Shown here piece after piece: positions 6,885-27,817 of a stretch of DNA of 64,000 bases. Each line of letters opens with the position of its first letter. The stretch's first letter is position 1. Source of the stretch: Gammaproteobacteria bacterium (lineage in GTDB: Bacteria; Pseudomonadota; Gammaproteobacteria; UBA4575). The translations under genes and the position numbers were made by a program. The notes under the pieces are model-generated. The model searched no databases, was not told the origin of the DNA, and worked only from the letters and a program-made list of their open reading frames with translations. Location of the stretch: assembly GCA_965222615.1 (NCBI GenBank), contig CBDCUI010000009.1:672001-736000 (forward strand). Direction: 5' to 3'.

Positions 6885-7138
6885 GTGTGCTCCTCCAAAG
6901 AGAGTTTTTATTTTAAAGCTCTGAATAAAGCCGCCTTGGCTTTTTCAGTGGTGAAAAAAGAAAATTGTATTTTCTTTCTCTTAATAAATCATAAACGTAT
7001 TAACAATTATGATTTGGTGTCACCTCCTTATAACACAGATATCCCTTCATAAATTAGAAATATCTTTTAAAATAGCTTGCGTTAGCTACTTATTTTTTTT
7101 TATACCTACAAAACATTAATTAATGAGACGCAAAATTT

Positions 7139-8251: not shown

Positions 8252-8282
8252 TAGTTATCTTCTCTAATTAATTATTTTTTAA

Positions 8283-9230: not shown

Positions 9231-9260
9231 TTATAAAGGTCCTCGTCTTAAATGTAATTT

Positions 9261-10049: not shown

Positions 10050-10063
10050 TTGCTAGTCACCAA

Positions 10064-11950
10064 CTATGCTGATTGTAATTTTAGTTCGGCTAGTGTTTCA
10101 CCACTAGAAGTATCTTTCACTTCAAAAATTGATTGAGAAGAGTACAAGGCATCTACCATCGCTTTATGGCGACCCATGACAACATCGCGTCTAATTTTAC
10201 GTGAACGTGTCATTTCGCCTGCATCAACGTTAAATTCACGATGCATAATTAAAAAACGCTTAATAGGTGGACTACCTTTACCCTCAATTTGCTCCATATG
10301 TGCATTTACATCGGCTACCGTTTTTTGCACAAGCTCATAAACTTCATCTTTAGTTGCCAAATCTCTATATCCTGTAAAGCGAACTCGATTTGCCTCAGCC
10401 CAACTTCCTACTGTATCACTGTCAATCACTACAAATGCAGCAATCGTATCTTTACCATCCCCCACTGCAACTGCTTCTTGTATATAGGGTGATGATTTTA
10501 AGGCACTCTCTACAAGGTGCGGAGCAAATAAATCCCCGGTACTGAACTTACCAACTGAATCTACACGATCAGTAATCTTGAGTGCGCCTTTTTCATCAAT
10601 TTCACCCATATCTCCGGTTTTAATCCAGCCATCTGCATCTACTACAGCTGCCGTAGCTTCTGGATCTCGGTAATATCCTTTAAACGCATTGATGCCTTTA
10701 AAAGCTATTTGATCATCTGCAAGTTTTTTAATCTCGATTCCGGGCGATGGCTTACCCATACTATATTCGCCCGTCGGGCTATTGAGTTGATCAGGGCCTT
10801 GTACGCAGATAAAACCTGCACTTTCCGTTGTGCCATAGGTCTTTTTGAGATTCAGGCCTATGCCACGAAAAAAGTTAAACACTTCACCACTCATAATATC
10901 GCCACCCGTATAGGCTTTGCGTAAATTAGAAAGGCCATATACATTTTTTAGCGGGCCAAACATCAACATGTTTCCCATTTTATATTTAAAGCTATCACCA
11001 CCCGAGAAAGCACCACCATTAATAAACTTCTCTCGTGCCTGTTTTGCAAAGTTATTCCACTTATCAAATAATTTTGATTTTGAACGTTGCGCCCGTGCAA
11101 TGATCTCTGAATGTAGTCTCTTATAGAAATGCGGTGGAGCATAAAGAATTGAAGGTCCGATCTCACGTAAATCAGTCATGATAGTTTCATTGCTTTCAGG
11201 GCAACAAATTGTGAAACCTTTTATTAACCAAAGCGTGTAGGTAAATAATATATTGGCTGCATAGGACAACGGTAAAAATGCAAGCACTTGTTCATCTTGT
11301 TTAATGTGTTCTTGCTCAGCAAATACCTTACCAGTTTCGATTAGACTTTTATGTGTATGTACCGCACCACGAGATTTTCCAGAGGTTCCAGAGGTGTACA
11401 AGATAAACGCGTCTGAATCTGGAGTAACATTTGCGGTTACGTCTTTATAAAAATTGGGGTGATCAGAAGCGAATTTTTTACCAGCTTCTCTTATCTGTTC
11501 AAAACTATGTAAACGAGAAGAAGTATACTCTTGCATTCCACGGCCATTGCTATAGACCATTTGTTCAAAATTTTCGCACTGTTCTTTTATTTCGTAACAG
11601 GCATCCACTTGTTGCTGATCTTGAACAAGTGCAAATTTTGCTTCGCAATCATTCATGTGCGCGACAAGTTCTTCAGGTTTAGAATCGGGATGAATTGGAA
11701 CCGCTACAGCACCTAAACATTGGATAGCGACCATTCCAAAATAAAGATTTGGGATATTGTTACCGATGATTGCAACTTTTTCATTTGGTTTGACACCCTT
11801 AGCAGCCAAACCACAAGCTGTATCACGAACAATCTCGCCAGCCTCTTCCCAAGTCCAGCTTTGCCATAGTCCATGTCGTTTTTTGCGGATTGCTATATCT
11901 GATTTGCGAGAGTTAGCTTGCTGTGAGAAAAGGCTAGGAAAAGTATCCAT
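10064..11950 (-). CDS. Long-chain fatty-acid--CoA ligase (AMP-binding enzyme)
   Basis: YTSGTSGKSRG P-loop, YGTTE, GWIKTGD, EMTRSRKIRR. Confidence 0.88.
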   Translation of the reverse strand: MDTFPSLFSQQANSRKSDIAIRKKRHGLWQSWTWEEAGEIVRDTACGLAAKGVKPNEKVAIIGNNIPNLYFGMVAIQCLGAVAVPIHPDSKPEELVAHMNDCEAKFALVQDQQQVDACYEIKEQCENFEQMVYSNGRGMQEYTSSRLHSFEQIREAGKKFASDHPNFYKDVTANVTPDSDAFILYTSGTSGKSRGAVHTHKSLIETGKVFAEQEHIKQDEQVLAFLPLSYAANILFTYTLWLIKGFTICCPESNETIMTDLREIGPSILYAPPHFYKRLHSEIIARAQRSKSKLFDKWNNFAKQAREKFINGGAFSGGDSFKYKMGNMLMFGPLKNVYGLSNLRKAYTGGDIMSGEVFNFFRGIGLNLKKTYGTTESAGFICVQGPDQLNSPTGEYSMGKPSPGIEIKKLADDQIAFKGINAFKGYYRDPEATAAVVDADGWIKTGDMGEIDEKGALKITDRVDSVGKFSTGDLFAPHLVESALKSSPYIQEAVAVGDGKDTIAAFVVIDSDTVGSWAEANRVRFTGYRDLATKDEVYELVQKTVADVNAHMEQIEGKGSPPIKRFLIMHREFNVDAGEMTRSRKIRRDVVMGRHKAMVDALYSSQSIFEVKDTSSGETLAELKLQSA

Positions 11951-12473
11951 GTTAAAACTTCAAACCCCTATTCGCTCCATCTGTTTAACTTACTAAAATA
12001 GTAAGTACGTTAATTATTTTTTTAATGGCCAGCTATTATTATTGTGTCGCTAGTCTCTTCGAGGGCCTTGCACTAGATAATAGACATTTTTACGTGTATT
12101 TACATTATACAAAGTAAGTTTTATGCGTAACTTGTTATATTCTTTATCGCAACATTGCTGAATAGCCAATTACCATCCAGTGACTCCAGGCAAGAAGGCT
12201 AAACTACACCAGCAAACCAATACTTTGCAAGCATTTGTGTATGCGATTTGTTATACATACATAATACCGATTTATATGAAAATTATATGAAAAATTTGGC
12301 TCCTCACTACCAAGATACCAGGATAAATTGCCCTTCGCTTTGATATGACACAGGATAGTGTACTAATTTATCAGGACTGTGCGCTAAGCTTAGTTATTAT
12401 AAGTAAAAACTTTGTTTTTAATGCGCATAATTAAAAGAATTAGAATGAATCTAAACGATCAAAATTTATACAA

Positions 12474-15400
12474 TTACCTCTGTTTTTGCCGGAAATGCGA
12501 TAGGACTTTGATATTGGATCGGTCCGCTAAAATAAATTGTTGTTCAAAATCCACGCTCTTCATTGGCTGGCCTATATAAAAACCTTGAATATAGTCACAG
12601 CCTTCCGCAATCAGTAAATCCTGTTGTTTTTTTGATTCCACACCTTCTGCAAGTACTTTTAAATTTAGGCTTTTTGCCAATGCAATAATGCCTTTTACAA
12701 TTAGCCGGTCTTCTTTATTTTCAGCAATATCGCGTATAAACGCTGCATCAATTTTTAGTAAATCTATCGGAAATTTACGCAAGTAATTTAATGAAGAATA
12801 TCCTGTTCCAAAATCATCAATTGAAAGTTTTACGCCCATTGCCTTCAGTTGATGCAAAATAGAAATCACTTCCTCTGGGCGTTTCATAATGATGCTTTCC
12901 GTTATTTCTAGCTCTAGGCACTCAGGATTGAGCCCAGAATGTGCAAGCACATGGGCAATTTGTGATGCAATGTCACTATTTTCTAGTTGCCTACCAGAAA
13001 GATTTACCGAAACAGGAATTGGCTGATAGCCTTTTTCAATCCATGTTTGCACCTGTACACAAGCACTGATCAAAACCCATAAACCAAGCTCTGAAATAAG
13101 ACCGGTTTCTTCTGCTAGTGGTATAAAATCTGCTGGGCTTATTAAACCTTTTTGAGGGTGATTCCACCGCACCAATGCCTCCATACCGTTTATTTTCATG
13201 GTTTGTAAATCGTATTTTGGTTGGTAATAAACGTCTAATTCATCCCGTTCAATCGAATGACGCAGATCTTGTTCAATTTCTACTTTGTTGGTGACTACAA
13301 CTTCCATCTCTTTCTCATAAAACTGGTAACTGCCACCACGTTCTTTTGCTTTAAACATTGCAGTATCAGCGCGCTTCATTAACACGCCAATATCGTCTCC
13401 ATCCTGTGGATGTAATGAGATCCCAATACTTGCTGTTACATATATATCTTTGCCTGCAAATGAGTAAGGCTCACCTAACTTTTGACATATTTTATCGGCA
13501 ATACTTGCAACAACATTTCGATCCTCAATACCATCTAATACCAAAGTAAATTCATCACCGCCCAAACGCGCAACAGTATCTGCACTACGCACACAACTTA
13601 ATATTCGTTCTGCAACTGATTTTAATAACATATCACCTACATTATGGCCCAATGTATCATTGACATACTTAAACCGATCCAAATCTAGAAACATCACAGC
13701 TAAAATTTCTGAGCTGCGTCGCACTTTCTTCAATAGTTTTTGCATTTGATTGATAAACATTGTGCGATTAGGCAATCCTGTTAACGAATCGTTATAAGCA
13801 AGTTCACGAACGTGAACTTCGGCACGACTAGCTTTCAACAAACGCGAGATGCGTTGACGCATTACGGCAAAGTGAATTGGCTTAGGAATGTAATCTGTAG
13901 CACCTGAATTAAAGGCTTGTTCAATAGATTTTTCATCATCCAATGCAGTAACAATCAGTATTGGCACGTGGCTGCTGCCTCTTAACATGCGAATTTTTTT
14001 ACACGCCTCAAAACCGTTTAGATTTGGCATAAGTGCGTCAAGAATGATGAGGTCAGGCATATTTTTCTCGCAACGCGACACCGCATCTATCCCATCTGAG
14101 ACCGCTTCTATTTCATAGCCATCTTTTACAAGTACGTTTTGCAAAGCTACTCTCATACTTCTGTCATCATCTGCAATTAAAATTCGTTCGGCATCACGAT
14201 GTTGGAGCAAGGTATCGTCTTTAAATAAATTAAGCTCTTTCTTGAGTTCACTATTTACAAGGTCTGCCTCTGTAAATAAGTATTGAACGAGCTCACGCGC
14301 ATTATTATCTATTGAATTATTGCGACCTATATCTTCAAGTTGTTTAGCAATATATGCCAAACGATTTGCACCAAAATTAGAGCTACTACCCTTGATAGTA
14401 TGTGCATAGTGCGTAAGTGTATTTGCATCTTTTTCCATGACGCTCTTTTCAAGTGAACGTAGTAATATAGCCATATCCTCTACATACACTTCCACCATGT
14501 CATTAAATGCATCACCCAAATCTTCTCTCAGCTCAGCAATTACTGCATGATCGATCGCACTGTTATCTTTGTTACCTTCTTCAAGCCTATCTACCAATGT
14601 CTTTTCTATTTCTTCCTCAATGGCTTCATCAGATGGAGCTCCTAACCATCGCTCTAATTTTGCAACCAAGGTTTCCATCTTTAATGGTTTTGAGGCGTAA
14701 TCGCTCATTCCAGCTTGAATACACTTTTCACGCTCTCCCTCTAAGACATTTGCTGTCATTGCAATAATAGGGATTTGTGCAACTTCAGAATCGAACTTGC
14801 GTATTTTTTGCGCGGCTTCATATCCATCCATGCCAGGCATATTGCAGTCCATTAAAACTGCATCATAATGAGTGGTTTCAAGAAGATCCAACGCTTCAAA
14901 TCCATTTGCAGCGATAGAAGATTTACATCCGATACGTTCAAGCATTGCTTGCGCGACTTGCTGATTTGCGCGGTTATCTTCTACTACTAAAATAGTTGCA
15001 TTGAAATTTGGTTTTTTCTTAGCCAGTGTAGCTATACTTGTTCCTTTCCCAACACTTTCAATAACAGGAGAATGAAGCAGTTCTGCAATGCAATCGAATA
15101 CACGTGATTGACGTACTGGCTTTTTAATATATGTGTCAATTTCTCTAAAACGCTCAACAAATGCCTCTGGATTAGTTTGATTAGTCATCAGCACCAGTTT
15201 CATTGGTGCAATGTGTTCGTCTTTAGTGATTTTTCGAATTAATTCGATACCATTTACTTGTGGCATTAATTCATCGATGAATGCCACATCAAATGACTGA
15301 TTAGTCCTCGTGGCTTTGCGTAAAACTTCAACCGTATCAGAAGCGTCAGGTATACAAGTAACAAAAGCGCCCCAATTTTCAAAGGTTTGTTGTAAATTCG

Positions 15401-16991
15401 CTTTAATAATTTCACTATCATCTGCAACAAATATTCGCAAACCTTCCGCAGTAGATTGCTTGGTATCAATTTGACGTACATCGGATAAGCTATCTTTAAA
15501 CGGTATTTCAAACCAGAATATACTGCCCTCACCTAGATGACTTTCTACACCAATTCTACCGTTCATAACTTCAACAAGCTGTCGACAAATCGCAAGACCT
15601 AAGCCAGTTCCACCAAACTTTTTAGTGGTAGAAGCATCGGCTTGTTGAAAAGCTTCAAAAACTTTTGCCTGAGCCTCTTCAGATATGCCTACACCTGTAT
15701 CCGAGACTTCAAACCTCAATCTTAGGATTTTGCCACCATTGGTAACATTTTTTACGCGAAACCCTATCTCGCCTTTATCCGTAAACTTAATGGCATTACC
15801 AGCTAGATTAATAAGTAACTGACGAATTCGACTCGAATCACTATTTACATTTGCAGGCACATCTTTATCTACAACATAGGCAAGATCTAAGTCTTTTGAC
15901 TGTGCTTGACCCGTTAAAATTCCGACAATGTCATCTAAGGTCTCACGAATGTTCAATGGCTCCAGCTCAACATGAGCTTTACCGGAATCGATTTTTGAAA
16001 AATTTAGAATGTCATCAATTAATCTTAATAGTGCATCGCCCGAATCATGTGCCACAGAAACATATTCTTTTTGCTTAGGACTAAGCTCAGTTTCTCTAAG
16101 AATTTCGAGCATTCCTAAGATGCCATTTAACGGTGTACGTAATTCATGACTGACATTTGCCGCAAATTCACCTTTTGCATGCGCATATTCCAAAGCAGCA
16201 CTTCGTGCAGATTCTAATTTATCTTCACGGTCCGCTATGGCGAACATCATAGTGTTAAATGCGCTTTGCATCGCTGTAATATCTTTTGTACCCCAAATTT
16301 TTGAGCGCACATTTAAATCACCTTCTTCTGCAACACGCATTAAGCGCGCAAGATTATTTAAAGGCTTTGTTACTCGATCAGTTATGGCTAATAACAGAAA
16401 TACAAGAATTCCAGACAACAATAGGGATACAAATAAATTAACTTGAAATATGCTTTTCTCAAGCGCATGCAAGGTATCCTTACTGACATGTATTCGTACA
16501 TAACCGAGTAATTCTCTGTCAATAACTTCTTCAATAAATGGTGACTCAGCAATTATGGGATCGTCACCTCTTGCATAGACGGGCGATACAAAATACCAAG
16601 CATTATCTGTTTCTTTTATAAGTTCAGCTTCAAGTGGCCAAACATTTGCATCGTCAGGTATGGTATTCACACCATCTTCTACCAAAGGTTTCTTTTCAAG
16701 ATCATAAACTCCTACGCCATGTACATCAGGGAAATTCTTAATTGCCTGGGCATTTTCTCTAGCACTTTCTTTACTAAGATATAACAAGGCAAGTGTATTC
16801 CGATCTGCAAAATCTCTGGTTATTTGGAATCCTTCTGAAACCAAATTTTGCTCTACTTCCCTTGCTGAAAAAGTTGAGATTAGATATGTAGATATTGCAG
16901 CACTCGCAATAATACCTATCACAAAGGTGGCGATTAGCTGTTCTTTAAAACCACTTGTAAACTTTTTCTTAATGTAATTATAAATTTTCAT
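12474..16991 (-). CDS. Hybrid sensor: TM-periplasmic-TM-HAMP-HisKA-HATPase-REC-REC-Hpt-REC-GGDEF-EAL
   Basis: [26 protein letters not shown], three REC domains (IDELMP, MDCNMP, LDALMP), Hpt AHTIKGSS, RSADxxxRLGGDEF, [15 protein letters not shown]. Confidence 0.93.
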
Positions 16992-16997
16992 AACAAC

Positions 16998-17963
16998 TTA
17001 TTCAGATGGAAATACTGCATCAAAACTTCTAAGTTCTGCGTTAGAGATATTTATCCCCAAGTGCTCTGCAGTTCTTCTATTAAATGCAGTTTGCAAATCC
17101 GTAACCGGTAAAATTTCTTTTTCTCTCACAGAATTTCCATTCAATTCTTCAATTGCCGCCCTACCTAAACTTTGTCCTAACTTAATATTGTCTGGATACA
17201 TGGCGAACAAAACACCTTTATTCACATGGGCAAGGCTACTTGAGAAAACTACGATATCCCGTTTCCACGCTTGATCTAGAATCAGAGACAATAGTGCACG
17301 GTTATCTACTGCAGATGGATCGGGTAGCAGCCAAATGGCTGCATTTTTCATATTAGGACGCTTAAATATTTTGCGATAAAGCTTGGCAGACTCTGAAAGG
17401 CTCTTGGTTGGATATGTAGTTAGCTGTATATCATATTTTGTCGCAGCTGATTGTGCTCTTTTAATCAGCCACTCAGTTTTATTTGGATTATATACAGCAA
17501 CTACCTCCTTGGTTTGAGAGCTTAGTTTTTTTAACTTTTCAAATAATTTATCTGGTGACGGCGCTAACGATATTCCCGTGCGCGCACTTGTGTTCGGTTT
17601 CGGAGTAATTACACCACCCAAAACTACAGGTATATTGCCCTCTAAAGTAGATGTAGCATTTTCACTGCGCACACCAAGCGCAATACATACTTTAATATCA
17701 TTCTTGCTTAGCCATTGATTGAGTTCTTTTGATGAATAATCTTTTTTCAAAACGTAACGCATCGTGCGCCCATTCACTTCTTTTTCAACACCATCTGCCA
17801 TATCGGTGAAAATTTTATTAAACGGTGCGCGCAATTCGGGATATATCACTGCAACAGAAATTGTCGAAGCTTGTGCTGCCAATACTGTGACAATAGATAT
17901 AGAGAGAAAGAATGCAATTGCTATGCATTTTTTTTTCGCTATTTGATATATCTTATTCGCCAT
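16998..17963 (-). CDS. Periplasmic ligand-binding protein (ABC_sub_bind/YfiR-like) with no cognate ABC permease
   Basis: Signal peptide; AIWLLPD, GVLFAMYPD, FNRRTAEHLGI motifs; ends 6 bp before the sensor start. Confidence 0.75.
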   Translation of the reverse strand: MANKIYQIAKKKCIAIAFFLSISIVTVLAAQASTISVAVIYPELRAPFNKIFTDMADGVEKEVNGRTMRYVLKKDYSSKELNQWLSKNDIKVCIALGVRSENATSTLEGNIPVVLGGVITPKPNTSARTGISLAPSPDKLFEKLKKLSSQTKEVVAVYNPNKTEWLIKRAQSAATKYDIQLTTYPTKSLSESAKLYRKIFKRPNMKNAAIWLLPDPSAVDNRALLSLILDQAWKRDIVVFSSSLAHVNKGVLFAMYPDNIKLGQSLGRAAIEELNGNSVREKEILPVTDLQTAFNRRTAEHLGINISNAELRSFDAVFPSE

Positions 17964-17990
17964 TATTTATATTAAGTTGCACCTAAATTG

Positions 17991-19007
17991 TTATGGTTTT
18001 TCTCCAGAAACCACTCCCCAATATCCAAATGTTTTAGTGGACTTCACATTTACAAAACCTGCATCTTTGAGAAATTTACTTAGTTCTTTACCGGAATATT
18101 GCTTACCTTCAGTCCAATTAAGCATCGCCACGTTAGCTGCGGCAGCTATGGCAGGACCGCTTTTATCATCATCAAAAAGCATCTCATGTATTAGAACTTT
18201 CCCTTTTACAGGCAAGGATTTAAAACTTTTTTCGGAAAAAAACTGGCATTTGTCTTTGGGCCAGTCATGAAAAATTTGTGAGTAGAAATGAACATCGGCT
18301 TTAGGGAAGTCATCATTCCAAAAATCTCCTTGCACTACTTTTGCACGATCAGATAAATCATATTGATTAAAGTATTCTTGAGAAACTTCGCACACAGGGG
18401 GAATATCAAAATTTATTCCCTTTAGATGAGTCCAACGATTTAATACACCAATAATATGTGCGCCAGAACCTCCTCCAATATCTAGGAATACTTTATGATT
18501 TGAGAAATCAAAAAACTCTGGCCATGCAGAAGCAGGTGCAATACTTGAACTATGCATTGCTTGTGTAAAATTTCTCGCTATATCGAACTGTTTCTCATGA
18601 CTATCAAATATTGCTTCATCCCCATAAACCTTAGGTTCATTGGATAAAACAGATTGTCTGAGACTTTCAAGAGTATTTAAGGCAAAGATGTCTAGTAAGC
18701 CTCCAAAATAAGTTGGACTATCTTTCAACAAGTATTTCTTTGCATGATCCGTCAATGAATACTTTTGATCAGATAAAGAAATAAAATTCATATTTACCAA
18801 CATTAATAACAACGCTTCAGTTGATCTAGAAGCAATATTAAGTTTTTTGGAAATTTCTTCTAACGATTTCGGGCCATCATTTAATGATGAAAACAAATTT
18901 AATTCATTTGCAAGCATTAATGTCTGATACTTAAATAAGCCTGCAAGGACATCGAAAACAGGTTTATCATCTAAATTTTTCTCATCCTCGACTTGCATTG
19001 AATTCAT
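17991..19007 (-). CDS. SAM-dependent O-methyltransferase (Methyltransf_2 type with dimerisation domain)
   Basis: LDIGGGSG, VVQGDFW, SQIFHDW motifs; N-terminal winged-helix dimerisation region. Confidence 0.88.
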   Translation of the reverse strand: MNSMQVEDEKNLDDKPVFDVLAGLFKYQTLMLANELNLFSSLNDGPKSLEEISKKLNIASRSTEALLLMLVNMNFISLSDQKYSLTDHAKKYLLKDSPTYFGGLLDIFALNTLESLRQSVLSNEPKVYGDEAIFDSHEKQFDIARNFTQAMHSSSIAPASAWPEFFDFSNHKVFLDIGGGSGAHIIGVLNRWTHLKGINFDIPPVCEVSQEYFNQYDLSDRAKVVQGDFWNDDFPKADVHFYSQIFHDWPKDKCQFFSEKSFKSLPVKGKVLIHEMLFDDDKSGPAIAAAANVAMLNWTEGKQYSGKELSKFLKDAGFVNVKSTKTFGYWGVVSGEKP

Positions 19008-19161
19008 AGTTAACTCCTTATCTTATTTGATTAGTTTTATTTTTATAAATTACTGTTATTACTTATGCAAATATTAAAAAGTCACAAGCGCTAATTGCAC
19101 TTTGAATTTCAGTAAGCTCAGGATGCTTAATCAAGATAGAGGAAGTATTACTACGAGACTC

Positions 19162-21237
19162 TTAGAAATTTACTCGCATTTCTCCAAAATAACTTCGTCT
19201 CGCAAGTGGTAGATCATTTGGTATGAATAACCCTGACGAATTGAACATACTTGGCTCATATGGCCTTGAATTGAATAAATTTCTCACAGAAAACGCAAAT
19301 TCCCATCGGTTCTGAAAAGATTTACTACGTACTGTTAAATCAAAAATATCATAATCATCAAGATCATCGGTTCTTGTATCATTATGAACTCTGTCTCGAT
19401 CCATAACAAAATTCCATTGTGGAGCTAAATACCATCCAGGTATAAACTCCCAATTAGCCTTAACATAGAACTGATTTTGAGGAGCATTTCCAGAGTCCTC
19501 ATTAACATCCTCATCTTCTGATTCTTGATAAGCATAGTTTCCTAGTAAATGAAATTTTCTATTTATTTTCCAATCGAATTCAAACTCTAAACCGTAGCCC
19601 TCTTGTTCTCCCACATTTGCTGCAATCGGTGTAAATTCAATAATGTCATCCCACTTGTACTGAAATAGATTTAAACCAAGCTGAAGATTATCTTTTGGCC
19701 GGTAGTCAAATGCTAGTTCAAGCGTCTTTATTTCCTCTGGATCTAGTTCACTGTTACCAACTGCGACAGGATTATTTTGATTCCTAAATTCGGCAAATGA
19801 TGGTGCACGAAATGCTTCACCGTATAACAGTTTAGCAGTCAAATCATGACGTGCGGCCCAAACTAACGCTAAGCGTGGATTCCATGTGTCACCAAAATCA
19901 TTGTAATCGTCATATCTCAGTCCAGCAGTCAGTTCCCAGTCATTACTGAATTGCCAGATATCTTGAATAAATGCAAAAGTATTATTCCGATGCTTCTCTG
20001 GTAGGAATGCAAAAGGCGTATCTGAGACATCAGTAAATGGGATTGGAGCAAATGCAATAAAGTTTCTATGATCTTCAACCTTATAAATATCACTATTAGT
20101 GTATCCCGCACCCACTCTTATTAGATGATCGCTAAAGCCAGAAAATAAACCAGTTACATTAAATCTCCAATGCCTCTCCCAAACTTCAGGATTACCTATT
20201 ACTCCATTCGGAAACGCTCCAAACCCAAAATTAGTACCTGGTGGGAATAAAATAGTATCGTCATCTACCACTTGACTTGTATTTAGATAACTAATTTGCG
20301 CTTGCACATCCCATGTATCAGTAAATTCAGTATTATGATAAGTCAGATCTGCATTCCACCGATCACTTTCATATGTACCATTAGGGTCTAAAGCATCTGC
20401 AACACCTGCCCCAGTTTCAACGTTACGGCGATGTTGAAGACCAGTTCGGAATTTCCAATTTCCTCGTGAAATATCTGCACGAATATCAAAACGCTCTGAA
20501 CCTGTGTTAACAGAATCCGGTGCGAATGAAGTACCAAGCGGGGTGGCTGCATCTGCACCTATATCTTCATCTTGGCCATCTGTATCACGATATTCAGCCA
20601 TAAATGCAACGTCAAATTCACCCCATTTCCCTCCATAAAGAGACCATGCATCGTAAGTATCAAAACTACCTACACGTGAACCAAATTTAGTCCCATCAAT
20701 TTCATTAGCTTGTTTTGTAACAATATTTATAACTCCTGCAAATGCATCAGCACCATATACCGCGGAACCAGGACCTCGTATAACCTCAATTCGTGAAATT
20801 GATTCTACTGGCATACCTCCCCATACCTGACTTCTATCACCAATAAATAGATTATTTACAGATATACCGTTCACCAAAACAAGAACTTGAGGATTAAAAC
20901 CAGTATGTATCCCACGGAATGTGTAAATAGGATTATAAAGAATGCTTGATCGCGAAACATGTAAACCAGGTACAGTCTCAAGTGCTTCATCCAAATCTGT
21001 AGCACCCATTTCTTTAATGTCTTTTGCAGTAATTACAGTCGCAACTGCTGGTGCACGTGAAATCGGTTGTGCCGTTCCTGTTGCTATACTTATAACTTCC
21101 TCATCGCCATAGAGCTCTATTAGTGCTTCTTCATCATAGTCTGCTTGTGCAAAGGAAATTATAAACAAGTTTATAAAGATACTTGAAATAATATTTTTGA
21201 AATTGTTCACAATAAAGACTTGATTAAACATGTTCAT
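19162..21237 (-). CDS. TonB-dependent outer-membrane receptor
   Basis: Plug motifs APAVATVITA, IEVIRGPGSAVYGADAFAGVINIVTK; C-terminal Phe. Start placed at ATG 21237 after SD aaggag. Confidence 0.92.
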   Translation of the reverse strand: MNMFNQVFIVNNFKNIISSIFINLFIISFAQADYDEEALIELYGDEEVISIATGTAQPISRAPAVATVITAKDIKEMGATDLDEALETVPGLHVSRSSILYNPIYTFRGIHTGFNPQVLVLVNGISVNNLFIGDRSQVWGGMPVESISRIEVIRGPGSAVYGADAFAGVINIVTKQANEIDGTKFGSRVGSFDTYDAWSLYGGKWGEFDVAFMAEYRDTDGQDEDIGADAATPLGTSFAPDSVNTGSERFDIRADISRGNWKFRTGLQHRRNVETGAGVADALDPNGTYESDRWNADLTYHNTEFTDTWDVQAQISYLNTSQVVDDDTILFPPGTNFGFGAFPNGVIGNPEVWERHWRFNVTGLFSGFSDHLIRVGAGYTNSDIYKVEDHRNFIAFAPIPFTDVSDTPFAFLPEKHRNNTFAFIQDIWQFSNDWELTAGLRYDDYNDFGDTWNPRLALVWAARHDLTAKLLYGEAFRAPSFAEFRNQNNPVAVGNSELDPEEIKTLELAFDYRPKDNLQLGLNLFQYKWDDIIEFTPIAANVGEQEGYGLEFEFDWKINRKFHLLGNYAYQESEDEDVNEDSGNAPQNQFYVKANWEFIPGWYLAPQWNFVMDRDRVHNDTRTDDLDDYDIFDLTVRSKSFQNRWEFAFSVRNLFNSRPYEPSMFNSSGLFIPNDLPLARRSYFGEMRVNF

Positions 21238-21573
21238 GCGACACTCCTTATGTCTTACATGTATATTTCTTTTCACTTGTTATTTGCGTCAGACAAAACT
21301 CATAAAAAAATAGACGAGTATCCGCCTCATATCCCAAGCGAAACAATACGTAATTAATGCACCTTATTTTAAGGAGTTACGTGAGAAACTAGTCGAAAAT
21401 GTATCGGAAGTTTGATACCGCGGATCTTATAGGTTTAAGCACAAATGGTATTAAATATGGGATGAACGGAATTTTTTCTTTAGGATTAAAAAATTCTGAA
21501 TTTTATATTCGACAAACACGGAAACTTAAATAAAAAATAGACAAACCAAATTAAAAACGACTATTAAGATTAT

Positions 21574-22374
21574 TTACCATTTACGAGCTTCTATGCCTTT
21601 ATAGAATATCCTGTCACAACGTAACGGAAATAATGCTCCTTCCGGTTCCATGCTTGAATCGATATAGCAAGGGAAAAACCCTGCAGTAAAACATAAGGTC
21701 ATAAAATGATAAAATTCACGAGCATTAAGTCCTTGATCTGAAGCTAGCGCTGCATCAACTGCTGCAATATTCATTTTAAAACGGTATCTAGACTTTTTTA
21801 AAATCTCTTCAATTTTTAGAAGCAAGCTTAGATGTTTCCCAGAATGGAATCCCAAATCCTTTGCTAGCTCCAATAAAGGATCTACTCTTTCATCTTTATT
21901 AATTATTGGTCGGCCAAATCCAGCAAGCCATCTTTGGTTCTTAAGTTCGCGTTTGATAATTCCTTCTAAATCTTCACCATTATCAACTTTAACTCTACAA
22001 TTTATTAAAAAATCACAAACTTTTGTTAACGGCACTTGACCATAGTTTCTAGCTTCTGAGACTGCAATAGATGCAGCAATTGCTAAGTTTCCTGTAGATC
22101 TAGTTGTTCCTGCAAGGCTTGCTACTCTATTATTCCAAATTCTCGGTTCAGGAAAGCTAGCCGATATTCTCCAGATTCCCTCAAATAGTTTTCCCTGTTT
22201 TCTATTAAACTCTCTGCCAGTAATTGCAAAAAGTAAAAATTGCATCCAAGTAAATGCCTTAAACTCAGAAAATATATCCCTCCCACGTAATACTACTCTT
22301 TCACCTGGAAACCAGGCGCCCATAGCCGTTACCCAGTTTTCCTCATAATTAATTAGTGGAGATTTTTTGCTCAT
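21574..22374 (-). CDS. Citrate synthase / citryl-CoA lyase-fold protein (divergent)
   Basis: VVLRGRD, LAGFGRP...DERV, MNIAA..AAL correspond to IRGYD, PGFGH..DPR, NVDG..AAI of the fold. Confidence 0.7.
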   Translation of the reverse strand: MSKKSPLINYEENWVTAMGAWFPGERVVLRGRDIFSEFKAFTWMQFLLFAITGREFNRKQGKLFEGIWRISASFPEPRIWNNRVASLAGTTRSTGNLAIAASIAVSEARNYGQVPLTKVCDFLINCRVKVDNGEDLEGIIKRELKNQRWLAGFGRPIINKDERVDPLLELAKDLGFHSGKHLSLLLKIEEILKKSRYRFKMNIAAVDAALASDQGLNAREFYHFMTLCFTAGFFPCYIDSSMEPEGALFPLRCDRIFYKGIEARKW

Positions 22375-22389
22375 TAGAAATATTACTTG

Positions 22390-23202
22390 TTAATTATTTA
22401 TTGGCCCGGGATCATTTTGTAGTTTCAGGGAATCCTCAAAAAAAGGATATTTACGCCAGCCATAATGTTTTTGTTCTAGAGCATGAACGGCTGCACCTGG
22501 CAACCGAAAAAAGAGAAAAAGCATTTCTCCTTGTTCCGTTGTTAATTTCAAATCAACAAATGCAGCAGCAATTACTCCTGTAAATGCTAGAGGCATGTTT
22601 GAATGTTCCTCTAAGGTTTGTCGATTTTTTTTTAGCCAATCAAGATTAGATTTCGGACCTGCTATTTCACATAAAGAAACTAAAATTTGTTGCGTTGGTG
22701 TTGAACAGCTAACCCCATTTGGATCAAATCCCGGAGGATGTTCGATAGGCGTCCATACGTCTATTCGTTCTTCATTTCGGGGATTTTTTATTGCATTTTG
22801 CCAATTCTTTATGTTTTGCCCGCATTCCTCCCAATTCTGCATGGCGAGATATACTTCCCTCGCACCACCATATTGACCTGCACCAACTGCAAGTGCGGCC
22901 ATCAATGCCGATGCTGAGGTAGAACCTCCAACGCCAGCATTCATTGCTGCGCGAACACTGTGGTCTCGTATTCCAGGATTCGCTATTGCAACCGCAATGG
23001 TTTCAAGTAATTTGGCCTGTTCTTTGGTGGGTTTTTCAAGTTTAAATAATAAATATAAGTATTCTACCCAGCTCGCTTTACCTAGAAGATCTCCATACAC
23101 ATCATAACCAGCGCAATAACATTTTTTTGCCGCGAAAGGATTATTCGGCTCTGGTTCTTCGTTCCATATTTTTGTATGGATAACTTCTTTTTTTTTACTC
23201 AC
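22390..23202 (-). CDS. Citrate synthase / citryl-CoA lyase-fold protein (divergent)
   Basis: GYDVYGDLLGK, AGQYGGA, PPGF, RLPGAAVHALEQ (cf. R..G.AAH..EQ). Confidence 0.72.
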   Translation of the reverse strand: MSKKKEVIHTKIWNEEPEPNNPFAAKKCYCAGYDVYGDLLGKASWVEYLYLLFKLEKPTKEQAKLLETIAVAIANPGIRDHSVRAAMNAGVGGSTSASALMAALAVGAGQYGGAREVYLAMQNWEECGQNIKNWQNAIKNPRNEERIDVWTPIEHPPGFDPNGVSCSTPTQQILVSLCEIAGPKSNLDWLKKNRQTLEEHSNMPLAFTGVIAAAFVDLKLTTEQGEMLFLFFRLPGAAVHALEQKHYGWRKYPFFEDSLKLQNDPGPINN

Positions 23203-23223
23203 TTGTACGACACAAGCTCAATT

Positions 23224-25143
23224 TTAAAGATGAAGATGTGGAGTTGGATGCAAAACTTGTATTCTTGTTTGCATAGGTGGGATCTCATTTGAATCAACAT
23301 GGACATCAATTAAAGTAGGACCTTTTCGTGAACATATCTCACCAAAATCCAACTTTAATAAGTCCTCTGGGCTTTTAACAACATGTGAAGGTACATTTAA
23401 AGCCTCTGCCATTTTAGCAAAACTCGCAGAAGGAAGCTGATAACTTGTAAGTTCTACTTGTCCTAGAATCTGTCCTGATTTAACCATGCCTAGTTCTGAA
23501 TCATTTAAAATAATGAATATAACTGTCAGTTCTTCATGTACAGCAACAGAAATTTCCTGGGAAGACATTAAATAACTTCCATCTCCTGTTAAACATACAA
23601 CTGGTGCATTTTTTGCCACTAATGCTGTTCCAATTGAAGCACCAATAGCCCAACCCATAGAAGCAAATTCTATACAGGCTCGAAACAACCCACCTTTGAT
23701 ATTACGTCTACCAGTAATTCTTCTATCATAAGGATGAAGATAATGTATTCCCCATGCAAATGAATTGCCTGTATCGGCCAAATAACGTGTGTTAGGAGGA
23801 AATAAATTTGGCAATTCTTTCATCAACCGCTGTGGTTTAATTGGCGTGGCATTTGAATGATATTTATCAGGCTCATCAAGAGTTAACTGAATTTTAGAAG
23901 CCTCAGAGAAAATTTGATTGCCTTTTTTATTGGATGAATGTTCAAATTGCTTTTTATTGCTACTAGTTTTATTCAGATATTCATTTATCTTCAAAAATAT
24001 ATGCTGAATAGAACCCCTGATATGTAAATTAGCCATCGGTGAACGTGTAAGATTAGTCTCCACCTCATCAATATGCACTAAGCGGCTATTAAGCAATGAA
24101 TGATCCCATGCATTGCTTTCCCATTCACTTAAAGACGACCCAATCACAATGATATTGTCTAAGCTTTTATCATTTAAGGCATCATTAGCACTTTCATGTC
24201 CAGCAAAACCAACAACTCCACGGAATAATGGGTGATAAGGACTTACAAGGCCTTTCCCTAGTGGTGTTGTAAGCAAGGTTGCATTTAAAGTACAAGCAAC
24301 TTCAAGAATTGTACCTATTGCTGGTCCAGCCTCCTCTCCAATAATCATTACTGTTCTATCGCTTTTAACTAGATCGCGACAAAGCAAACCAACCGCATCT
24401 TCATCAATCAAACTAGGTCGCCATAACAAATTAGCCAAATCATAATTAGGTTGTTTTGTGGGTGAATTTGAAGCAAAAACATCCATGGGGAGACTTAAAT
24501 GAACTGGACCTGAAGGTGACTGATGTGCAGTCATAATTGCAGAAACTAATTTTCTTTCAAATTGCTCCACGTGAGAAACTAAAGAATTATAACGTGTACA
24601 ATATTGAAACATTCCTAAAGTATTTATTCCTGTACATGAAGATTCCTGAAACGCACCTTTACCAAATGTCGATAAAGCAGTCTGTGCTGTAATCACAAGG
24701 AGTGGAATATTATTTTCAAAAGCAGATGAAACTCCCGTAATTAAATTTGTAGTTCCTGGTCCTGTGGTTGCACAACACACACCAAGATTACCGCTATTAC
24801 GTGCATAACCATCCGCCATAAATGCTGCACCGGTTTCATGTCTTGCAACGATTGGTTTTAATCCACCTCTGCGTTCGCTTCTTGCCAGCGCATTGTAAAG
24901 TGGCTCGATTGCGCCCCCAGGAATTCCAAACACATACTCAACACCGATTTGCTCTAAATATGAAACAAGCAAATCACCTACTTCATATGTTGGTAATGCT
25001 TCAGATAATTCAACTAGTTTTTCTGGTGTATGTTTTTCTGAACGAATACTAACCACATTGTTTGTGGTTGCCCGATTGAATTTATTCGCTATTTCCAACG
25101 AAATATTTTTCGTTGTACGAATCTCGTCACCGCGAGCTGACAT
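23224..25143 (-). CDS. Thiamine-diphosphate-dependent enzyme (acetolactate synthase-like superfamily)
   Basis: VFGIPGG, ARHETGAAFMADGYAR, TTGPGTTN, ASMGWAIG, GDGSYLM...ILND. Confidence 0.9.
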   Translation of the reverse strand: MSARGDEIRTTKNISLEIANKFNRATTNNVVSIRSEKHTPEKLVELSEALPTYEVGDLLVSYLEQIGVEYVFGIPGGAIEPLYNALARSERRGGLKPIVARHETGAAFMADGYARNSGNLGVCCATTGPGTTNLITGVSSAFENNIPLLVITAQTALSTFGKGAFQESSCTGINTLGMFQYCTRYNSLVSHVEQFERKLVSAIMTAHQSPSGPVHLSLPMDVFASNSPTKQPNYDLANLLWRPSLIDEDAVGLLCRDLVKSDRTVMIIGEEAGPAIGTILEVACTLNATLLTTPLGKGLVSPYHPLFRGVVGFAGHESANDALNDKSLDNIIVIGSSLSEWESNAWDHSLLNSRLVHIDEVETNLTRSPMANLHIRGSIQHIFLKINEYLNKTSSNKKQFEHSSNKKGNQIFSEASKIQLTLDEPDKYHSNATPIKPQRLMKELPNLFPPNTRYLADTGNSFAWGIHYLHPYDRRITGRRNIKGGLFRACIEFASMGWAIGASIGTALVAKNAPVVCLTGDGSYLMSSQEISVAVHEELTVIFIILNDSELGMVKSGQILGQVELTSYQLPSASFAKMAEALNVPSHVVKSPEDLLKLDFGEICSRKGPTLIDVHVDSNEIPPMQTRIQVLHPTPHLHL

Positions 25144-25690
25144 GGTTTTTTCTCCTGGTTAAATACTAGGCAAGGGAAACACACATTTTTTTAATTGTTA
25201 TACACTTATTATTATTTGTGTTAACAACTGTTTACAACGTTAATATCGATAACTTCTTAAGTGTTATACAGAATTTAACATACTTTAGTGGGGTTAATTA
25301 ACCATATATTGAGGAAGGTAAATAACTTAATGATTTAAAAGGTAGAATTTTTTTAAACCAGTTCTCGAAACAGGTAATTTTATTTTGTTAGCTAAAGAAA
25401 TTCGCTAAAAATATGTGTATCTAGTGAAATTTGAAAAAATCATTTATTTCACTCAAGCCCATTAATCACAAAATATTTATGACGCACTTTTCAAGAACGT
25501 ATCATTTGATACTCTAAATAATTGATCACTAAAAATAACTATCTTAAAAAAATATAATGCACTAGCAATTTAATTAGACTTAAAAAAGAAACACAGACAA
25601 AATTAAGTTTATTAAATTTCTCCACATAAGATTTTTCTAGATTATAAAAATGTTCTAGAAAAGAATCAGTTAAAACTGTTGCTTCAATTT

Positions 25691-25733
25691 ATACACTAAA
25701 AACGCATACTAATTGTATGTGTTTAGAGTGTAT
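25691..25733. repeat. Imperfect 19-bp inverted repeat in an AT-rich divergent intergenic region
   Basis: atacactaaaaacgcatac-taatt-gtatgtgtttagagtgtat (16/19 matched). Confidence 0.5.
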
Positions 25734-25920
25734 TAATTAACAATTTATTAATTGGAATCTTTATCTACAAATATAATAATACAAGTCACATATTTTAATA
25801 ATTTCCTTAGTGCTGCTATTGCAATCACATACTATTTTGTCATAGCAAACTACAATCAATCTAATCTAATTAGTAACCCACATAACTTCTAACTATTTAA
25901 AACTTTAGTTCTAAGCGGTA

Positions 25921-27324
25921 ATGATAAAATCAACGTTACACAAAATTGAAATTTTTGTTCTTGCGTTAGTAGTTATCGCAATTTTTGGAGTGACTTATCA
26001 CTACTACTCTCCTTCGTTGTTACAACAAATCAAAAATAATGACGAATTAGTTGTAATAACTCGCAACAGTCCTAGCACTTATTATGTTGGTAACGGTGGG
26101 CCTACAGGTTTTGAATATGAACTTGCACAGTTGTTTGCAGATTATTTAGATGTAAAGCTTGCCTTAATTGTTCAAAGTGAATTCCATCAAATTCTACCAG
26201 CAATTGTCGATGGCAAAGCCCATATCGGTGCGGCTGGAATCACACATACCAGACAACGTGAAGCCTACGTCGACTTCGGCCCTGATTACCTACAAATAAA
26301 TACTCAAGTGACCTATCAAGGAGGCAAGAAGAAGCCAAGATCTATTGAAGATCTGAATGAAAAGCGTGTAGCGGTTATCAAGGGCAGTACGCATGCACAA
26401 ATATTACAAGATCACAAAGAATTCTTTCCGTATTTGAAATGGGATGAGTACTCAGATTTGGATTCTGAAGAGCTAATGCAATTGGTTTCCGAAGGGCTCA
26501 TCGATTACACGATAGCTGATTCCAATGAATTGGCTCTTAACCGTCGTTATTTTCCTAACTTAAGAGTCGGATTTGATATTGGCCGTGAGCAATCCTTGGC
26601 CTGGGCATTTCTAAAAACAGATGATACTTCATTACAAGATTCTGCAAATAAGTTTTTTGCGCAAATCACTAATGATGGCACTCTCACACAATTAAAAGAA
26701 AAGTATTTTGGTCATATAAATGATATTACTCCTTCGGATAGTCACACCTTTATTAAACATGTAAAAGAACGGCTGCCGAAATATGAAAATATTTTTAAAG
26801 AAGCCGCATTAGAGTATGGCATCGATTGGCGTTTTCTTGCTGCCATTAGTTATCAAGAATCACTATGGAATTCAAAAGCAGTTTCTCCTACTGGTGTTAG
26901 GGGACTGATGATGCTTACCAGAAACACTGCTAAGCAATTACAAATTAAAAACAGAATTGATCCTTCAAAAAGTGTATTCGGCGGTACTGAGTATTACCTG
27001 ACAATACGCGATAAAATCCCAAGTCGCATCGAAGACCCAGATCGTACCTGGCTGGCATTAGCAGCATATAATGTGGGTTTTGGCCACCTTGAGGATGCAC
27101 GTATTCTTACCCAACAAGCTGGAGATGATCCTGATCTTTGGTCTGATGTTAGAAAATACTTACCTTTGTTGAGCAAGAAAAAGTGGTATAAAAAAACCCG
27201 TTATGGCTATGCTCGAGGTAATGAACCCGTTGAGTACGTGCAAAATATTCGTAATTATTTTGACCTATTGGTGTGGTTAGAAAACAAAGGTGAGCTACAC
27301 GAAATGCTCGCACAAAGATCTTAA
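25921..27324 (+). CDS. mltF: Membrane-bound lytic murein transglycosylase F
   Basis: N-terminal SBP-like domain (GFEYELA) plus SLT domain (YQESLW, GVRGLMMLT, AAYNVG, GYARG). Confidence 0.93.
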   Translation: MIKSTLHKIEIFVLALVVIAIFGVTYHYYSPSLLQQIKNNDELVVITRNSPSTYYVGNGGPTGFEYELAQLFADYLDVKLALIVQSEFHQILPAIVDGKAHIGAAGITHTRQREAYVDFGPDYLQINTQVTYQGGKKKPRSIEDLNEKRVAVIKGSTHAQILQDHKEFFPYLKWDEYSDLDSEELMQLVSEGLIDYTIADSNELALNRRYFPNLRVGFDIGREQSLAWAFLKTDDTSLQDSANKFFAQITNDGTLTQLKEKYFGHINDITPSDSHTFIKHVKERLPKYENIFKEAALEYGIDWRFLAAISYQESLWNSKAVSPTGVRGLMMLTRNTAKQLQIKNRIDPSKSVFGGTEYYLTIRDKIPSRIEDPDRTWLALAAYNVGFGHLEDARILTQQAGDDPDLWSDVRKYLPLLSKKKWYKKTRYGYARGNEPVEYVQNIRNYFDLLVWLENKGELHEMLAQRS

Positions 27325-27339
27325 CGCAAATCTTTAGCT

Positions 27340-27789
27340 CTATCTGCGTTTACAAAAAAACTGCTGCAGAATCTCTGCACATTCTTCCTGCATTACTCCA
27401 CCGGTAACTTCAACCGTATGGTTGTGTCTAGTATCAGACAATAAATTAAACATTGAACCTGCGGCACCGGTCTTGGGATCAGTCGCGCCAAATACCAATC
27501 TTTTGATTCTGGCATGTAACATAGCCCCTGCACACATTACGCAGGGCTCTAAGGTTACAAACATTGTGGTATCAATTAATCGATAATTATTTAGTGTTTT
27601 AGCTGCATTGCGTAAAGCAACTATTTCAGCATGCGCACTTGGGTCGTTACTACTGATGGGCTGGTTCCAACCCGATCCAATTATTTCATCTCTATAAACG
27701 AGTACTGCACCTACTGGCACTTCCTCTTGAGTTTCTGCCTGTTGTGCCAACTCAAGGGCCTTACACATCCATTGTTCGTCTTTATTCAA
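27340..27789 (-). CDS. tadA: tRNA adenosine(34) deaminase
   Basis: EVPVGAV, HAE, TLEPCVMCAGA. Confidence 0.95.
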   Translation of the reverse strand: MNKDEQWMCKALELAQQAETQEEVPVGAVLVYRDEIIGSGWNQPISSNDPSAHAEIVALRNAAKTLNNYRLIDTTMFVTLEPCVMCAGAMLHARIKRLVFGATDPKTGAAGSMFNLLSDTRHNHTVEVTGGVMQEECAEILQQFFCKRR

Positions 27790-27817
27790 CGTTTAAAAAA
27801 CTGGATATAGAAATGAT

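Follow-up and report, generated by a model that had tools for sequence, protein, structure and literature searches.

A conserved gammaproteobacterial gene module that may make a small extracellular molecule and sense it through a TonB-dependent receptor and a c-di-GMP-linked kinase

We analyzed a 64-kb window of gammaproteobacterial DNA (the whole stretch, to which all coordinates refer unless a locus is named) and focused on seven genes at positions 12474-25143 that all run on the minus strand. Six of the encoded families, namely a thiamine diphosphate (ThDP) enzyme, two paralogous proteins of the citrate-synthase fold (CSa and CSb), a TonB-dependent outer-membrane receptor, a periplasmic binding protein of family PF04392 and a hybrid sensor kinase, form one conserved module; the seventh, a methyltransferase, is accessory. 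We propose that the cluster works as one functional unit for producing and sensing a small extracellular molecule, and we regard the chances that this loop operates in full as evenly balanced.

The list of open reading frames (ORFs) and the Pfam assignments agreed with the original prediction in describing seven co-oriented genes. From the ThDP gene to the kinase gene, the intergenic gaps were 21, 15, 297, 154, 27, and 6 nt. None of the seven proteins reached a curated NCBIfam cut-off. We found no permease or catabolic gene within 12474-25143, and PF04392 has no second member in the 3.1-Mb genome (99.8% complete), so the description of the binding protein as an orphan also held.

We compared the module with 12 loci (two on the same contig) in 11 other genomes of the window's family. 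The stretch from mltF to livM was collinear in 11/11 of these genomes; eight loci carried all six core families in one stretch, and three were cut by contig ends. In every family member that carries the module, it occupies the slot between mltF and an AMP-dependent ligase gene. Since collinearity extends throughout the family, in-family synteny alone could be due to shared descent. Two unrelated units, a biosynthetic operon and a common pair of binding protein and kinase, might then be neighbors by descent only, and in-family synteny proves nothing against this. Evidence from outside the family, however, makes this explanation highly improbable. We searched 401 gammaproteobacterial genomes, sampled evenly, for CSa (E ≤ 1e-20) and for the binding protein (E ≤ 1e-30; 400 genomes scored). 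The 39 genomes with CSa span many families, and the binding protein was present in 48; 36 genomes had both, three had CSa only, and 12 had the binding protein only. The binding protein was therefore present in 36/39 CSa-positive genomes vs. 12/361 CSa-negative genomes. Two unpublished genomes, G063 (both genes) and G165 (binding protein only), are among those counted; without them, CSa numbers 38, the binding protein 46, and both 35. Two of the 12 genomes scored for the binding protein only hold divergent CSa and CSb and a full module (L079 and L084).

Linkage was also examined at 28 loci of other gammaproteobacterial families, 20 kb each, comprising one per family among the better matches and eight divergent ones. 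All six core genes lay on one contig in 19. Four loci were cut by contig ends (L043, L051, L053, and L074), each in a genome with the binding protein on another contig, and five were without some parts (L054, L055, L060, L069, and L072). The arrangement varied considerably. The pair of binding protein and kinase was inverted relative to the enzymes at six loci (L041, L042, L048, L058, L073, and L075); a divergent clade (L070, L071, and L076) had the order ThDP enzyme, receptor, CSa, CSb, binding protein, kinase; and in G292 the enzyme trio and the trio of receptor, binding protein, and kinase were ~10 kb apart. The output domains varied as well. Short kinases (~540 aa) were accompanied by a separate output protein, either REC-REC-PAS-GGDEF-EAL (L041 and L048) or PAS-GGDEF-EAL (L042), and at L044 and L047 the kinase was a hybrid with REC and Hpt domains, with a separate REC-SpoIIE-HATPase_c_2 protein beside the cluster. 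In G353 (L086), the binding-protein gene precedes that of a membrane HAMP-PAS-GGDEF-EAL protein, whose N terminus is 32% identical to the kinase sensor region.

Eight genomes of other classes had CSa-like matches in a phylum sample of 401 genomes, and we examined four. Two of these four loci (L065 and L068) carry the receptor, CSa, CSb, the ThDP enzyme, the PF04392 binding protein, and the kinase, in this order. Synteny of the enzyme trio with the receptor and sensor genes in other genomes had been set beforehand as the test on which the original prediction would stand or fall; it was observed at 19/28 loci and at 2/4 in another class. The linkage survives inversion, reordering, domain fission, and occurrence in another class. 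Synteny this far outside the family, with rearranged order, strand, and output domains, rules out mere vertical inheritance, and on the comparative evidence we exclude chance adjacency. Distance correlations between mirror trees (19 rows), which are confounded by phylogeny and carry little weight, were 0.74 for CSa and CSb, 0.88 for the receptor and the binding protein, and 0.19 for the ThDP enzyme and CSb.

The ThDP enzyme (639 aa; 23224-25143; Pfam TPP_enzyme_N/M/C) had as its closest solved relatives BbmA (8x3x; 296 bits, residues 55-632 aligned) and CsmA (8x3z; 248 bits), whereas the best acetolactate synthase (ALS) scored 189 bits, and glyoxylate carboligase, pyruvate oxidase, and 2-hydroxyacyl-CoA lyase (HACL) scored ≤143 bits. 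The translation shows GDGSYLM...LND (GDGS...LND) and HETGAAF, and RHETGAAFMADGYAR is present; both aligned with BbmA. We take GDG...N(N/D) to be the ThDP-binding motif and the Glu of the N-terminal domain to be catalytic. All ALS-type NCBIfam models scored below their cut-offs. We rejected a housekeeping ALS on the grounds that the enzyme reached only 287 of the 538 bits demanded by TIGR00118 and that the true ALS (667 bits with that model) is a separate gene on contig C8 of the same genome. In a 37-row tree, which was rooted on the genome's own ALS paralogues and left out L058 (truncated) and L059 (broken), the module ThDP genes formed one clade (support 98-100) apart from those paralogues. 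We also considered a swap of the ThDP gene between lineages within the window's family and rejected it, as the family ThDP and CSa sequences are each monophyletic (support 99 and 95). Judged by its relatives, the enzyme is a CybE-type carboligase, not a housekeeping ALS. At one in-family locus with an otherwise intact module (L016:2207-3904 in G006), the ThDP gene is fragmented into three or more ORFs.

CybE is described, in the available text of PMC12395478, PMC8777810, and PMC13288894, as the ThDP enzyme of cyanobacterin (furanolide) biosynthesis, forming an alpha-hydroxy-beta-keto acid through the acyloin condensation of two 2-oxo acids. According to the same portions, CybF, a "furanolide synthase" of the ketoacyl synthase III (KAS III) type, fuses this acid with an acyl-CoA to give the gamma-butyrolactone core, and CybG binds NAD(P). 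The accessible part of PMC8777810 states that the acyloin acid undergoes spontaneous decarboxylation. CsmA, whose name is identical in the PDB and in PMC12395478, appears in the available text of the latter as a CybE homologue of the furanolide pathway. Our comparison was made with the CybE homologues BbmA and CsmA, not with CybE itself; a text search of the literature for BbmA returned no paper under that name, and the link was found via CsmA and acyloin. By analogy with these closest characterized relatives, the ThDP enzyme would form an alpha-hydroxy-beta-keto acid from two 2-oxo acids.

The next two genes encode CSa (270 aa; 22390-23202) and CSb (266 aa; 21574-22374). Pfam Citrate_synt matched CSa at 24.2 bits, below its cut-off of 27, and CSb had no Pfam match; NCBIfam citryl-CoA lyase models matched both below cut-off (best 64.5 and 51.8 bits vs. 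212 and 245). CSa matched the citryl-CoA lyase 6hxp in the PDB with an E value of 1e-9, and a 24-row CSb profile did so over nearly its full length (E 3e-15). By hhalign, CSa and CSb matched each other with 98% probability at 19% identity, marking them as paralogues. Their AlphaFold models (predicted local distance difference test scores of 88.9 for CSa and 86.2 for CSb) had as best Foldseek matches 6hxp and the citryl-CoA-lyase modules of ATP-citrate lyase (ACLY), with probability 1.0 and template modeling (TM) scores of 0.67-0.80. Against 6hxp itself, the TM score was 0.67-0.70 for CSa, as its top match, and 0.77-0.80 for CSb. An ESM Atlas search with CSa returned citrate-synthase-like clusters only. 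Profiles and predicted models thus agree that both proteins have the citrate-synthase (citryl-CoA-lyase) fold.

The site within that fold appears to have been rebuilt. From the roles of H274, H320, and D375 in pig citrate synthase, we take the AHGGA, GYGH, and NVDG motifs of 6hxp to hold the catalytic His, His, and Asp. At these sites, alignments with 6hxp and with 24 rows of each protein showed Q(Y/L)GGA, PGFDP, and (F/M)(T/S)G in CSa, and YG, GYG-R (His deleted), and NIAA in CSb. CSb keeps two substrate-carboxylate arginines, which aligned with the GYGHR and DPR motifs of 6hxp. Invariant residues were N75, G77, R79, G158, F159, P235, G236, H240, and E243 in CSa, and R78, W80, N82, R155, D161, E162, R163, N202, D213, and C236 in CSb. 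The CSa alignment drew on 23/30 orthologues (without five in-family rows, a fusion, and a broken copy) and the CSb alignment on 23/27 (leaving out four in-family rows). CSa and CSb therefore share fold and length with 6hxp and the ATP-citrate lyase module, but differ from them in their invariant residues, in being a paralogue pair rather than one homodimer-forming gene, and in that CSa is sometimes fused to the ThDP enzyme.

Six such ThDP-CSa fusion proteins of 858-886 aa were found in the database, one of them being the fused ORF of L051. Their mutual identity is only 53-61%, which argues for an old, maintained fusion clade rather than assembly errors. The fusions suggest that the ThDP enzyme and the CSa/CSb pair most likely act as one complex.

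A second clue came from loci in which the pair has been displaced. L042 (G374) has the order GGDEF-EAL, ThDP enzyme, CSa, CSb, receptor, receptor, with kinase and binding protein on the other strand. At L082, from the congeneric genome G216, the genes run GGDEF-EAL, ThDP enzyme, short-chain dehydrogenase/reductase (SDR; 284 aa), KAS III-like protein (316 aa), receptor, again with kinase and binding protein on the other strand, so that the SDR and KAS III-like genes occupy the exact place of CSa and CSb. They represent the very enzyme families with which CybE is partnered. The KAS III-like protein has an intact Cys-His-Asn triad and belongs to a family of ~40 database clusters at 41-79% identity, with FabH apart at 28%. 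No CybF structure was among its PDB matches. A further displacement was observed on the metagenome contigs L088 and L089, where the order is ThDP enzyme, KAS III, receptor; the two share an identical KAS gene and were counted as one instance (identity to the window's proteins: 56% for the ThDP enzyme and 52-56% for the receptor). The KAS-associated ThDP genes fell into different subclades, that of L082 being sister to L042 (support 100) and that of L089 grouping with L049 (support 80), and we reasoned that the swap happened at least twice, with the ThDP enzyme and receptor retained. The window itself has no KAS III-type partner gene, which holds that position only in L082, L088, and L089. Most likely, the CSa/CSb pair would handle the labile product of the ThDP enzyme and fill a role that is also open to a condensing enzyme of the CybF type.

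The module thus resembles the CybE/CybF furanolide core (cyanobacterin, nostoclide, and enhygrolide) in its ThDP subfamily, for which CsmA and BbmA are the best solved relatives. The variants with a KAS III-family gene, with or without an NAD(P)-type SDR, after the ThDP gene match the CybE/CybF/CybG logic set out in the available portion of PMC8777810. The differences from the furanolide core are that the window's second enzyme is a His-less pair of the citryl-CoA-lyase fold rather than a KAS III, that the module is without an ammonia lyase or dedicated CoA ligase, and that the hosts are Gammaproteobacteria, not cyanobacteria or myxobacteria. No TonB receptor, binding protein, or kinase is reported for furanolide clusters in the available text of the sources compared.

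Tailoring by methylation is common in furanolide pathways and may be compared with the S-adenosylmethionine (SAM)-dependent methyltransferase of the window (338 aa; 17991-19007; Pfam Methyltransf_2 + Dimerisation), whose nearest solved structures were the family-2 O-methyltransferases RedM and DSYB. This gene was present in 6/11 relatives of the window's family and in 0/28 loci of other families. It lies between the receptor and binding-protein genes in G014, as in the window, and between CSb and the receptor in the other five. The O-methyltransferase is accessory, found only in the window's own family, and is not part of the core. Of the possibly methylated acyloin- or butenolide-like product suggested in the original prediction, the acyloin or butenolide character is supported by BbmA, CsmA, and the KAS III swap. 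At L060:6698-8611, a glutamine-dependent, asparagine-synthase-like amidotransferase gene lies between CSb and the ThDP gene, which suggests an amidated product in that lineage.

On the sensing side, the binding protein (321 aa; 16998-17963) matched Pfam ABC_sub_bind at 47.7 bits (cut-off 25.9) and has an N-terminal signal peptide. Its gene precedes that of the kinase by 6 nt and adjoins a sensor gene in every rearranged locus that carries it; no permease or ATPase linked to it was found in the module at any locus examined. The orphan binding protein is likely the co-sensor of the kinase. Three solved PF04392 proteins of a survey bind Trp, Tyr, or Phe, as listed in the accessible Table 1 of PMC10443332, a hint by analogy that would fit an aromatic acyloin-derived ligand.

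The kinase (1505 aa; 12474-16991; Pfam HAMP-HisKA-HATPase_c-3xREC-Hpt-GGDEF-EAL) is built as a transmembrane segment, a periplasmic domain, and a second transmembrane segment, followed by HAMP, HisKA, HATPase, REC, REC, Hpt, REC, GGDEF, and EAL. Hydrophobic segments at ~residues 19-41 and 184-204 enclose a periplasmic domain of 142 residues (42-183; 16443-16868), a borderline match to Pfam sCache_4 (22.3 bits vs. a cut-off of 22.1; E 1.2e-4) that the orthologous kinase of L041 also showed. Its GGDEF (residues 1065-1220; 166.9 bits) and EAL (1241-1476; 268.7 bits) domains are encoded at 12564-13799. Both retain intact motifs in the translation, including the RxxD site, which we take to accompany GGDEF; the definitions of the GGDEF and EAL catalytic motifs are likewise our assumption. 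By these motifs, the kinase output can probably make and break c-di-GMP under phosphorelay control. NCBIfam models for TorS and LuxQ matched the kinase core below cut-off. A predicted complex between the binding protein (34-321) and the periplasmic domain of the kinase (42-183) scored 0.18 (mark 0.32). LuxP/LuxQ, for autoinducer-2 (AI-2), and TorT/TorS, for trimethylamine N-oxide (TMAO), are hybrid kinases that depend on a binding protein, and they likewise have the gene for a permease-less periplasmic binding protein beside that of a hybrid kinase with a periplasmic domain. They differ from the window, where the binding protein is of PF04392, the sensor is of the Cache type, a TonB receptor lies upstream, and GGDEF-EAL is fused rather than a separate response regulator.

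The TonB-dependent receptor (704 aa; 19162-21276; Pfam Plug + TonB_dep_Rec_b-barrel at 85 and 163 bits) is without an N-terminal STN extension. It reached no specific subfamily, every score against NCBIfam receptor models being below cut-off, and its nearest solved structures (CirA, PirA, BtuB, and FepA, with PfeA also among the nearest) were all weak matches at ≤91 bits. Its gene adjoins the enzyme genes in nearly all related loci; the two are the tightest adjacency of the whole dataset, kept even when the second enzyme was swapped. Two loci carry two tandem paralogous receptors, with identities to the window's receptor of 54%/47% (L042) and 42%/35% (L057), and at L050:7627-8628 an insert of ~1 kb interrupts the receptor gene and carries an opposite-strand ORF of 333 aa that has no Pfam match.

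These receptor relatives raise the prospect of a metallophore-like system, in which the enzymes would make a chelator resembling an alpha-hydroxy acid or tetronate, the receptor would import the metal complex, the metal would be freed in the periplasm, and binding protein and kinase would report uptake. TonB receptors mostly import metal chelates; the nearest solved relatives here, though weak, are receptors for catecholate siderophores and B12; and no cytoplasmic importer is needed if the metal is freed in the periplasm, as with pyoverdine. We nevertheless consider this explanation improbable. Upstream of the ThDP and receptor genes, no Fur box scored better than in shuffled sequence among 50 upstream regions from 27 sources, with the exception of L014 (4 mismatches, equaled in 2 of 100 shuffles). 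Genes for metal handling, reductases, or recycling were absent from every locus, the output turns over c-di-GMP rather than driving transcription of uptake genes, and CybE-type products are not known chelators. The PfeA/PfeS-PfeR and PirA/PirS-PirR systems of Pseudomonas aeruginosa recognize a foreign siderophore and, through a DNA-binding regulator, switch on the gene for the receptor. They are similar to the module in that a periplasmic ligand imported by a TonB receptor is detected by a histidine kinase, and PirA and PfeA are among the nearest solved relatives of its receptor; the module differs in its probably self-made ligand, in its intervening binding protein, and in its c-di-GMP output.

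Loci in decay give another view of which parts belong together. Two small genomes of the family, G015 and G008, retain an intact binding protein and kinase in the slot between mltF and the ligase gene; they have lost the ThDP enzyme, CSa, and CSb, and keep only a remnant of the receptor. In the complete genome G068 (L059), the genes for binding protein, receptor, CSb, and ThDP enzyme are each split by frameshifts or stops, with the kinase, the GGDEF-EAL gene, and neighboring long genes intact. At L055, an IS66 transposase gene follows CSa. Overall, enzymes and receptor tend to go together, and the pair of binding protein and kinase can stand alone.

This pattern bears on two further explanations. 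In the first, the product would act intracellularly or at the envelope, and receptor, binding protein, and kinase would sense a different external cue and be merely co-regulated with the enzymes. An internal product would account for the want of an encoded exporter and for the solitary pairs of binding protein and kinase. It would also fit two loci of two families in another class (L066:331-2292 and L067:8392-14201), where the trio of ThDP enzyme, CSa, and CSb has no TonB receptor and lies beside a Ser/Thr-kinase-STAND(AAA_16) protein; that of L067 (Pkinase-AAA_16-GAF-HisKA_3) carries GAF-HisKA_3-HATPase and is followed by a LuxR-type response regulator. These sensor kinases may be a cytoplasmic way to sense the same product, and we count the two loci also in favor of a module that makes and senses its own molecule. 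A receptor ligand unrelated to the enzymes is hard to reconcile with their tight adjacency and joint decay, the receptor decaying once the enzymes are lost, and we consider an internal product unlikely.

In the second, the receptor would import a nutrient or xenobiotic, binding protein and kinase would report it, and the ThDP enzyme and the CS-fold proteins would break it down in the cytoplasm. Catabolic roles exist for ThDP enzymes and for lyases of the citrate-synthase fold as well, and this model is consistent with the joint loss of enzymes and receptor from G015 and G008 while the sensing pair persists, and with the receiver-only genome G325. It is opposed by the lack of an inner-membrane transporter at any locus examined and of a DNA-binding output, the outputs being c-di-GMP enzymes or a PP2C partner-switch protein. 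The accessory genes (SAM methyltransferase and Asn-synthase-like) are anabolic, the ThDP enzyme has biosynthetic carboligases as its nearest characterized relatives, the CSa/CSb pair can give way to a condensing enzyme of the KAS III type, and the host has a small genome that encodes RuBisCO. The kinship with BbmA and CsmA, the methyltransferase, the L060 amidotransferase, the missing inner-membrane importer, and the RuBisCO host make the genes look biosynthetic, not catabolic, and we hold catabolism to be a rather poor candidate.

We therefore return to a self-made, self-sensed molecule as the preferred explanation. The CybE-type ThDP carboligase would join two 2-oxo acids into a labile alpha-hydroxy-beta-keto acid, as its closest characterized relatives suggest, and the fusions point to a physical complex of this enzyme with a heterodimer of the two remodeled citryl-CoA-lyase-fold proteins. 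From the gene displacement, that pair would carry out the next ring- or C-C-forming step, probably dependent on acyl-CoA, as CybF does in furanolides; in the window's family, the O-methyltransferase might sometimes tailor the product. The molecule would leave the cell by some export route and be pumped back into the periplasm by the dedicated TonB-dependent receptor, where the orphan PF04392 protein and the Cache-type kinase domain would detect it. The REC-Hpt-REC phosphorelay would then switch the fused GGDEF-EAL, such that c-di-GMP tracks the external level of the cell's own product in a quorum-sensing-like manner.

Several observations weigh against this proposal. Gene content, folds, conserved linkage, fusions, and displacement are what we observed, and from them we infer the chemistry, export, re-import, ligand binding, and c-di-GMP effect. 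We found no exporter gene in any locus, and uptake through a TonB receptor would be unusual for a small lactone. The canonical catalytic His/His/Asp are absent from both CSa and CSb; with their loss, the two proteins may bind or chaperone an intermediate rather than catalyze, and the acyl-CoA aldol chemistry of citrate-synthase folds, on which the original prediction built, finds no support here. The PDB name BbmA corresponds, by our inference, to the "BpmA" of PMC12395478. Orthology of the KAS III-like protein to CybF found no support: the two share an enzyme family, and no cyanobacterial CybF was among its 47 database relatives, which were gammaproteobacterial or unnamed and then FabH. The KAS III-like gene (E ≤ 1e-40) was found in 1/400 genomes of the class sample, and the displacement amounts to two independent instances only. 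Three CSa-positive genomes (G183, G201, and G365) had no binding protein. Conversely, sensors occurred without the CSa/CSb pair in G325 (receptor, binding protein, and kinase) and in G346 and G312 (binding protein and kinase); a CSb profile search of these three genomes gave no match. A promoter and terminator scan returned fewer sites than shuffled sequence and so lent no backing to an operon structure.

We compared the proposed loop with known signaling loci. In CqsA/CqsS, LqsA/LqsS, and PhcB/PhcS, genes for a synthase and a membrane kinase are adjacent, and the PhcB methyltransferase finishes its signal. The module likewise has signal-making and kinase genes side by side, but its enzymes are of unrelated families, and the signals of the CqsA, LqsA, and PhcB loci cross the envelope without a TonB receptor or binding protein. 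Synthase and receptor genes were genetically linked across the loci examined, a linkage that serves as a criterion of quorum sensing. The furanolide nostoclide is described in the available text of PMC9324945 as a cell-density-dependent mediator in Nostoc punctiforme. More tentatively, and with less confidence than in the loop itself, we suggest that the module is a widespread, unrecognized form of Gram-negative signaling, with a furanolide- or butenolide-like autoinducer made by a His-less CS-fold heterodimer and a ThDP enzyme, imported by TonB, detected by binding protein and Cache-kinase, and read out as c-di-GMP. A full-text search, with most subscription journals outside its reach, found no published description of this gene combination.

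If the proposal is true, acyloin-derived lactones would be a new chemical language in Gram-negative signaling, including in small-genome chemolithoautotrophs, and extracellular small molecules would be linked directly through c-di-GMP to decisions on biofilm and motility. It would be the first case of a TonB-dependent receptor serving signal reception, and the first quorum-sensing route on TonB-powered import. The citrate-synthase fold would have a new, catalytic use without its textbook residues, analogous to the KAS III "furanolide synthase". The natural swap of the CSa/CSb pair for KAS III, together with the fusions, offers clear and cheap experimental handles.

The original prediction had also drawn a comparison with YfiR, a periplasmic regulator of diguanylate cyclases. 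One variant without binding protein and kinase lends this some substance, as a YfiR/HmsC-like DUF4154 gene lies directly upstream of the receptor gene (L054:19087-19650, the same as L064:4887-5450); elsewhere, the comparison remains an analogy. The 9 kb examined at L054 showed no YfiN-like cyclase.

Upstream of the ThDP gene, an AT-rich intergenic region of 777 nt (25144-25920) separates it from the divergent mltF and presumably holds the cluster promoter; GC content is ~0.26 over 800 nt. An Rfam scan of 11900-26000 gave one chance-level match only (E 0.57) and no riboswitch. Weak terminator-like sites at 21312-21327 and 19086-19102 were not above chance.

The module is flanked at 25921-29392 by mltF (SBP_bac_3 + SLT), tadA, and guaA. 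Directly downstream, on the minus strand at 4639-11950, are genes for an AMP-dependent acyl-CoA ligase (FadD11-like, 628 aa) and then a complete Liv-type ABC transporter, comprising LivG, two permeases, a Peripla_BP_6 binding protein of its own, and LivF. We considered these genes as part of the module and rejected this: an orthologue of the ligase was found in 21/24 family genomes vs. CSa in 9/24, a distribution independent of the module that marks the ligase and Liv genes as a separate unit. Finally, the left end of the window (53-4391) carries isocitrate lyase, RraA-like, metallo-beta-lactamase-fold, and isochorismatase-family genes, which are unlinked to the module in other genomes.

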